Source: Escherichia coli
GTDB taxonomy: Bacteria; Pseudomonadota; Gammaproteobacteria; Enterobacterales; Enterobacteriaceae
Assembly (NCBI RefSeq): GCF_050920415.1
Contig: NZ_CP169309.1
DNA: 64,000 nt
Strand: one strand, 5' to 3'
How positions within the stretch are numbered: position 1 is the stretch's first letter; each line of letters opens with the position of its first letter. Shown here one piece after another: positions 10,961 to 11,034 of the stretch. The notes beneath the pieces were generated by a model, which had not been told where the DNA came from, searched no databases, and saw only the letters and a list, made by a program, of their open reading frames with translations. The position numbers and the translations under genes were made by a program.

Positions 10961-11034
10961 GTGATTTTGTGATCTGTTTAAATGTTTTATTGCAATCGGT
11001 TGCTAAATTGCATTTTAAGGGTGATTTTGATCAC
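10961..11034 (+). promoter_or_regulatory. two CRP-like palindromes in ppiA upstream region
   Basis: gtgattttgtgatc (10961-10974) and gtgattttgatcac (11021-11034), TGTGA-N6-TCACA-like. Confidence 0.4.

Follow-up and report, generated by a model that had tools for sequence, protein, structure and literature searches.

Among the closest described relatives of the locus considered here are the CRP–CytR cassettes of the deoP2 type, which are found at deoC, udp, nupG, tsx-p2, cdd and rpoH. In the description given by Sernova & Gelfand 2012 (PMC3454398), a CytR half-site is the octamer GTTGCATT/AATGCAAC, with the core TTGCA. The half-sites are placed zero to three helical turns from each other, between two CRP sites, and one of them lies no more than about 5 bp from a CRP operator. 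This arrangement is condensed into a cassette rule, OCRP-N(-10..20)-OCYTR-N(0..20)-OCYTR-N(-10..20)-OCRP, with 10-40 bp between the CRP operators (Sernova & Gelfand 2012).

The gene ppiA (rot) is counted among nine E. coli genes with experimentally established regulation by CytR, and its regulation is reported as “type 1 at close relatives”. [quoted passage not shown] It is to the same study that PMC3454398 attributes the CytR-dependent repression of ppiA, which cytidine relieves. Control of ppiA by CRP and CytR is already known, and what is described below is ordinary, published biology.

The window analysed here is a stretch of 64,000 nucleotides of E. coli DNA. A first-pass annotation of its sequence had singled out two strings, gtgattttgtgatc and gtgattttgatcac, which occupy positions 10961-10974 and 11021-11034 just as it had said. 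It had taken them for two near-identical CRP-like palindromes 60 bp apart, and had suggested that they place ppiA or the divergent gene tsgA under the control of CRP, or of CRP and CytR together. Both strings lie in the divergent tsgA–ppiA intergenic region of the E. coli chromosome, which is 269 bp long (10899-11167) and has a G+C content of 37%. When the flagged region was used as a 401-bp query, it was matched in 5,425 of 5,426 complete E. coli genomes, where it is annotated as tsgA / ppiA. The record of K-12 MG1655 has a gene order identical to that of the window. Further open reading frames near ppiA in the ORF list are yhfG, fic, pabA and argD. An Rfam scan of positions 10800-11300 returned no RNA family at E<=1.

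The flagged region is very probably the CRP–CytR–CRP module already known from the promoters of E. coli ppiA (rot). Its elements and their neighbours are the following:

6912-9455, minus strand: nirB (ORF list).
9717-10898, minus strand: coding sequence of tsgA (yhfC), divergent from ppiA (ORF list; annotated so in RefSeq for identical DNA of E. coli).
10947-10982, minus strand: core promoter of tsgA, with -35 TTTAAA at 10982-10977, -10 TAAAAT at 10959-10954 and start at 10947.
10960-10969, plus strand: upstream copy of the 10-mer GGTGATTTTG, the core of the first of the two sites proposed originally; not a CRP half-site.
10968-10983: distal, weak CRP site TGTGATCTGTTTAAAT, centre 10975.5 (8.0 bits, conservation, spacing).
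10989-10996: candidate distal CytR half-operator ATTGCAAT, containing TTGCAA, with two mismatches to GTTGCATT/AATGCAAC on both strands.
11007-11014, plus strand: candidate proximal CytR half-operator ATTGCATT, with one mismatch to GTTGCATT.
11020-11035: proximal, strong CRP site GGTGATTTTGATCACG, centre 11027.5 (matrix, conservation, ETEC ChIP-seq peak).
11168-11740, plus strand: coding sequence of ppiA (rot) (same two sources as for tsgA).

CRP sites were scored with a symmetrised weight matrix of 16 bp, built from 106 motif sequences that the CRP ChIP-seq study of ETEC H10407 lists in its Table 1 (PMC4287617). The ppiA site was left out of the matrix to avoid circularity. Scores of the training sites range between 1.5 and 21.4 bits (median 13.0). 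The proximal site reaches 14.3 bits, which is above this median and ranks first among the roughly 64,000 positions of the window. Much lower is the score of the distal site, at 8.0 bits, which corresponds to rank 30 in the window and to the 9th percentile of the ChIP sites. Scores of this size are found about once per 2 kb and are by themselves statistically unremarkable. Within the intergenic region, the distal register is the only other positive one of note. One of its halves, TGTGA, is perfect, and the other, TAAAT, is poor. As read from its sequence, the putative distal site is a weak one with a single good half, and not a near-copy of the proximal site.

These scores divide the original reading of the two strings. 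The resemblance to the CRP consensus TGTGA-N6-TCACA is real for the downstream string, which departs from it at two positions. It is lost for the upstream string, where the implied register GGTGATTTTGTGATCT (GGTGA-N6-GATCT, 10960-10975) scores -1.4 bits, below all 106 training sites. The term “palindrome” applies in the same uneven way, since 10 of 14 positions are self-complementary in the downstream 14-mer and only 2 of 14 in the upstream one; the two 14-mers are identical to each other at 10 of 14 positions. Only the last 7 bases of the upstream string overlap the distal CRP site. The register 10960-10975 was also considered as an overlapping alternative CRP site, of the kind seen at cdd, and was rejected on its matrix score and its lack of conservation.

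Two further observations concern CRP-like sequences in the window. The tetranucleotide GATC (the Dam sequence) is present in both CRP sites, at 10971-10974 and 11029-11032, and is expected from the CRP consensus TGTGATCTAGATCACA. Far from the ppiA region, TGTGAAACACTTCACA at 59323-59338 has a perfect CRP core and scores 13.8 bits.

Conservation was followed with a scan for PpiA in one genome per species, which gave 80 loci. The tsgA–ppiA intergenic regions of 23 of them, from Escherichia to Erwinia/Pantoea, were aligned. Three stretches are invariant in all 23 orthologous regions: GTGA of the distal site (10969-10972), and TG(A) and TCAC of the proximal site. The right half of the distal site, TTTAAAT, coincides with the -35 hexamer of tsgA, and part of the conservation of this site may for that reason be unrelated to CRP.

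The spacing of the two sites is conserved as well. Their centres are 52 bp apart in the window, and 53 bp apart in K-12 and in about 93% of E. coli genomes. The 60 bp noted originally is the distance from start to start of the 10-mer copies, and not that between CRP centres. Reportedly, the abstract of the 1994 work on these promoters speaks of two CRP sites separated by 53 bp, and a single CRP complex is said there to serve two promoters, one of class I and one of class II. The reported figure of 53 bp fits the TGTGA register in K-12; with the register 10960-10975 it would be 61 bp. A strong proximal site (at least 11 bits) is present in 19 loci. In 16 of these, the highest CRP score in the interval 30-89 bp upstream is found at a distance of exactly 52 or 53 bp. 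The composite block is in every case accompanied by a proximal site at 52 or 53 bp (22 loci). Since the loci are related, these counts do not represent independent trials. The spacer has nonetheless changed freely among orthologues, with cores and spacing preserved.

The shorter spacing of the window is the result of a 1-bp deletion relative to K-12 (aag[A]ggtga) at 11019/11020, between the CytR operator and the proximal CRP site. One substitution (gtAatcg, against gtGatcg in K-12) is found downstream of the proximal site. The two spacing alleles were counted with allele-specific 34/35-mers, with 28-mer seeds that in all cases span the indel. The 52-bp allele occurs in 15 of 5,426 complete E. 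coli genomes and the 53-bp allele of K-12 in 5,021, and it is the latter that ETEC H10407 carries. Other genera have either 52 or 53 bp; therefore, both spacings appear to be tolerated.

Direct evidence for binding of CRP comes from the ETEC H10407 ChIP-seq study, which lists a peak at ppiA/tsgA with both genes named and with a motif that is exactly GGTGATTTTGATCACG (PMC4287617). In NC_017633.1, the listed centre of the peak is 182.5 bp away from this motif. Peak centres in the study lie systematically about 160-230 bp below the motif positions in NC_017633.1, as checked for ppiA, mtlA and yibI. Since the same offset is seen at mtlA and yibI, the ppiA peak is effectively on the proximal site. 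Any reuse of the peak coordinates of PMC4287617 needs to take this offset of about 160-230 bp into account. Sites 52 bp apart are not separable at the resolution of ChIP-seq, so the peak gives no separate signal for the distal site. In addition, ppiA is one of the known CRP targets found again by genomic SELEX.

The assignment of the distal site thus rests on its sequence, on its conservation and on the two sites 53 bp apart that the 1994 abstract reportedly describes; its position and conservation, and not its score, speak for it. A literature search with the sequence of the distal site returned no match.

Another regulator might be thought to bind the palindrome, which could be an FNR site or a hybrid FNR/CRP site instead of a CRP site. 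The nearby nirB gene is FNR-controlled. Compared with the FNR consensus TTGAT-N4-ATCAA, GTGATTTTGATCAC has just two mismatches. Both of them, however, fall on the bases that discriminate between CRP and FNR sites. The sequence reads GTGAT-N4-ATCAC, with a G in place of T and a C in place of A, and these CRP-type bases are found in all 23 orthologues. An FNR ChIP-seq summit at 3,490,500 (U00096.2) converts to about position 10989 of the window (Myers 2013, Table 3), but in the same work ppiA has distinct FNR and CRP sites and shows no FNR-dependent change of expression in glucose medium. The CRP ChIP-seq peak and genomic SELEX favour CRP. Taken as a whole, this makes the FNR interpretation of the palindrome highly improbable.

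The FNR summit near 10989 lies between the two CRP sites. The best candidate sequence there is TTTATTGCAATCGG at 10986-10999, which has three mismatches to TTGAT-N4-ATCAA and overlaps the distal CytR half-site. A perfect match to the FNR consensus, TTGATGTAAATCAA at 9514-9527, lies between nirB and tsgA, within a palindrome at 9513-9528. This is presumably the known FNR site of nirB.

The feature that first drew attention to the region was the repeat itself. The exact 10-mer GGTGATTTTG is indeed common to both strings, with starts at 10960 and 11020. If the two copies formed a functional direct repeat, they could be half-operators for one factor, or equivalent, cooperative CRP palindromes at 60 bp. 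The 10-mer is present twice within 269 bp and three times in the window, where 0.2 copies are expected, and a 9-mer version has been retained in E. albertii. The third copy, at 7662, falls inside the coding sequence of nirB, which speaks against a functional repeat. In Markov-1 random sequences, the chance of an exact repeat of at least 10 nt in 269 nt of this AT-rich composition is about 0.13, and the repeat is therefore unremarkable in itself.

Its distribution also fails to suggest a function. Across the 23 aligned regions, the repeat is found in Escherichia only. In other genera, the place of the upstream GGTGA (10960-64) is taken by GGCGT, TTCAT, GACTT and others. Even within E. coli it is not constant: in another lineage (L003) the repeat has been lost, the proximal site reading AGTGATTCTGATCACA and the downstream copy AGTGATTCTG. 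In K-12 and in 5,021 of 5,426 E. coli genomes, the copies are 61 bp apart and not 60. A direct repeat functioning at 60 bp is effectively excluded: the repeat is not conserved, its upstream register is neither palindromic nor positive for CRP, and in most E. coli the distance between its copies is 61 bp. The repeat is probably coincidental and without a function of its own. An origin of the two sites by duplication was rejected, as they have just 10 nt in common and their flanks are unrelated.

Between the two CRP sites lies the expected place of the CytR operator. The spacer of 36 bp (10984-11019) contains four hits to the CytR octamer with at most two mismatches, which equals the maximum for the window. 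Such a density is reached in 0.009% of 36-bp segments and in none of 2,000 shuffles. A gap of 10 bp separates the two candidate half-sites, with 5 bp between each of them and the neighbouring CRP core. The gaps of 5, 10 and 5 bp, together with the 36 bp between the 16-mer CRP cores, agree with the cassette rule. With the register 10960-10975, the CRP cores would be 44 bp apart, outside the range of 10-40 bp. A published hit of the RegulonDB CytR matrix, with a score of 13.2, covers the same stretch, for CTCTTAAAATGCAATTTAGCAACCGATTGC is the reverse complement of the spacer (Mendoza-Vargas 2009, Table S4).

The proximal TTGCA/TTACA is retained in most Enterobacteriaceae and absent in Erwinia/Pantoea (23 regions), while the CRP cores and their spacing are kept from Escherichia to Erwinia/Pantoea. 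This conservation agrees with the reported assignment to “type 1 at close relatives”. Scores, conservation and the octamer scan together support two CRP sites in tandem with CytR half-sites in between. The suggestion that CRP and CytR control ppiA has thus held, and it matches the membership of the gene in the published regulon (Nørregaard-Madsen 1994, cited in PMC3454398).

The relation of these sites to transcription can be considered separately for ppiA and tsgA. On the ppiA strand, the intergenic region contains exactly four -10-like hexamers, which are listed here with the CpxR box located among them:

11004-11009, plus strand: TAAATT with extended TG; predicted start about 11016, which would place the distal CRP centre at -40.5.
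11062-11067, plus strand: TATATT; predicted start about 11074, which would place the proximal CRP centre at -46.5.
11076-11090, plus strand: CpxR box GTAAA-N5-GTAAA, cGTAAAattagGTAAAggg (match to the CpxR consensus, conservation).
11077-11082, plus strand: TAAAAT; predicted start about 11089, which would place the proximal CRP centre at -61.5.
11118-11123, plus strand: -10 TAGAAT of the most downstream ppiA promoter, start 11130 (SMRT-Cappable-seq; TTTAgAaTC invariant in 23 regions).

At canonical promoters, CRP is centred near -41.5 in class II and at -61.5, -71.5, -82.5 or -92.5 in class I. The hexamers TAAATT, TATATT and TAAAAT lie at class II-like or class I-like distances from the CRP sites, and we infer that they belong to CRP-dependent ppiA promoters. 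The four hexamers would then fit the published count of four promoters, three of them CRP-dependent. The positions given for the three CRP-dependent starts would follow from the literature or from these distances.

The fourth promoter has a mapped start. SMRT-Cappable-seq recorded a transcript that spans b3363 at NC_000913.3 3491688-3492335 (reverse). In window coordinates its capped 5' end is position 11130, 7 nt after TAGAAT. Relative to this start, the proximal CRP site is centred at -102.5, which is non-canonical, and the promoter is presumably CRP-independent. Mendoza-Vargas 2009 has an entry for the start of tsgA alone and none for a start of ppiA. The two mapped starts available for comparison, tsgA at 10947 and downstream ppiA at 11130, contain nothing incompatible with control by CRP.

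The CpxR box is situated about 47 bp upstream of the start at 11130 and about 50 bp downstream of the flagged sites. Its pentamers are invariant in the 23 orthologues, except that in Erwinia psidii the second one has a single T-to-C change and reads GCAAA. In Yersinia, the orthologous box lies some 80 nt upstream of ppiA and was established as a CpxR~P site by DNase footprinting and mutation (PMC3158067).

In most genera of Enterobacteriaceae, the GTTACA…GTAAA block is 10-13 bp further from the proximal CRP site, a difference of roughly one helical turn, than in Escherichia and two species of Citrobacter (in the window, the region 11036-11055). In genera where a block of about 11 bp is added, the CpxR box and TAAAAT are accordingly at a distance of 58.5-61.5 from the proximal CRP site instead of 48.5. 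Such an insertion would shift the CRP position from -61.5 to about -72.5, which is consistent with a preserved helical phase between CRP and promoter.

The start of tsgA (yhfC) was mapped by 5' RACE to -49 from the ATG, with the -10 box CCTAAAAT (Mendoza-Vargas 2009, Table S1). It agrees with the only sigma-70-like hit of a promoter scan. In the 23 regions, an A.T.TA block of this promoter is invariant and TTTAAAT nearly so. Counted from the start at 10947, the distal CRP site is centred at -28.5 and the proximal site at -80.5 (-81.5 in K-12). GTGA of the distal site sits in the spacer between -35 and -10, and the other half of the site is the -35 element itself.

This geometry raises the possibility that the module mainly or additionally controls tsgA, either by CRP at the distal site, with or without CytR, blocking RNA polymerase, or by class I activation from the proximal site. 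The invariance of GTGA in the promoter spacer and the double use of TTTAAAT as -35 element would suit this interpretation, as would the assignment of the ETEC ChIP-seq peak to both genes (PMC4287617). So would a comparison of distances. From the proximal CRP site to the -10 of tsgA it is 73.5-74.5 bp in 20 of 20 loci where the block was found, while in the same 20 loci the distances to elements on the ppiA side range between 48.5 and 61.5. In Hafnia and Yersinia, which are without the block, the ppiA-side distances are 67.5 and 173.5.

The constancy on the tsgA side nevertheless follows automatically from the CRP–CRP spacing of 52/53 bp combined with the overlap. Moreover, positions -80.5 and -81.5 are 1-2 bp off the canonical class I position, and the literature search for control of tsgA/yhfC by CRP or CytR found no report of an effect on its expression. 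Control of tsgA is hence a possibility on the doubtful side, and it would add to the explanation given for ppiA without replacing it. A two-way switch, in which the occupancy that activates or anti-activates ppiA also represses the MFS transporter gene tsgA, can be put forward only tentatively. If it is true, the overlap of the distal site with the tsgA promoter predicts coupled and opposite regulation of tsgA and ppiA.

For ppiA, the CRP–CytR–CRP module remains the preferred explanation, with a mechanism that draws on the literature and on the positions described above. A CytR operator consisting of two TTGCA-type octamers (10989-96 and 11007-14) would lie between the strong CRP site at 11020-11035 and the weak one at 10968-10983. 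At high cAMP, bound CRP would activate the upstream ppiA promoters. CytR free of cytidine would bind cooperatively between the two CRP dimers and cancel this activation. The separate promoter with its start at 11130, behind the CpxR box, would allow CRP-independent expression of ppiA in response to envelope stress.

The result matters little beyond annotation. It does illustrate that an eye-catching short repeat can lead to a real regulatory region for a partly wrong reason. The second CRP site is 8 bp away from where the repeat had placed it, is no copy of the first, and is recognisable only through spacing and cross-species conservation. Minor by-products of the analysis are a rare natural 52-bp allele of a cassette that otherwise has 53 bp in E. 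coli, and a distal CRP site that overlaps the mapped promoter of tsgA.

The nearest of all known systems is the K-12 ppiA (rot) region (Nørregaard-Madsen et al. 1994, Mol Microbiol 14:989), which is the same locus; the window has a mean column identity of 98% with MG1655 over 311 aligned columns. CRP cores, CytR octamers, CpxR box and downstream promoter are all as in the window. K-12 differs in the distance between CRP centres, 53 bp instead of the 52 bp produced by the rare deletion, and in the one substitution.

The CpxR box, in turn, likens ppiA to other Cpx-regulated genes for envelope folding. In this group, which includes degP, dsbA and ppiA, GTAAA-N5-GTAAA is found just upstream of a promoter with a mapped start. 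At ppiA the box is a separate element, outside the CRP/CytR module.

The deoP2-type cassettes, as presented in PMC3454398, share with ppiA a weak CytR operator of the TTGCA type flanked by two CRP sites. A CRP site within about 5 bp of a CytR half-site and centres 52-53 bp apart are common to both, and CRP has the double part of activator and co-repressor. In most deoP2-type cassettes described there, the stronger CRP site is distal, whereas at ppiA the distal site is the weak one (8.0 against 14.3 bits). The ppiA cassette is further set apart by CytR half-sites that are 10 bp, or about one helical turn, from each other, by a distal site that overlaps the core promoter of the divergent tsgA, and by a gene product without a role in nucleoside metabolism.
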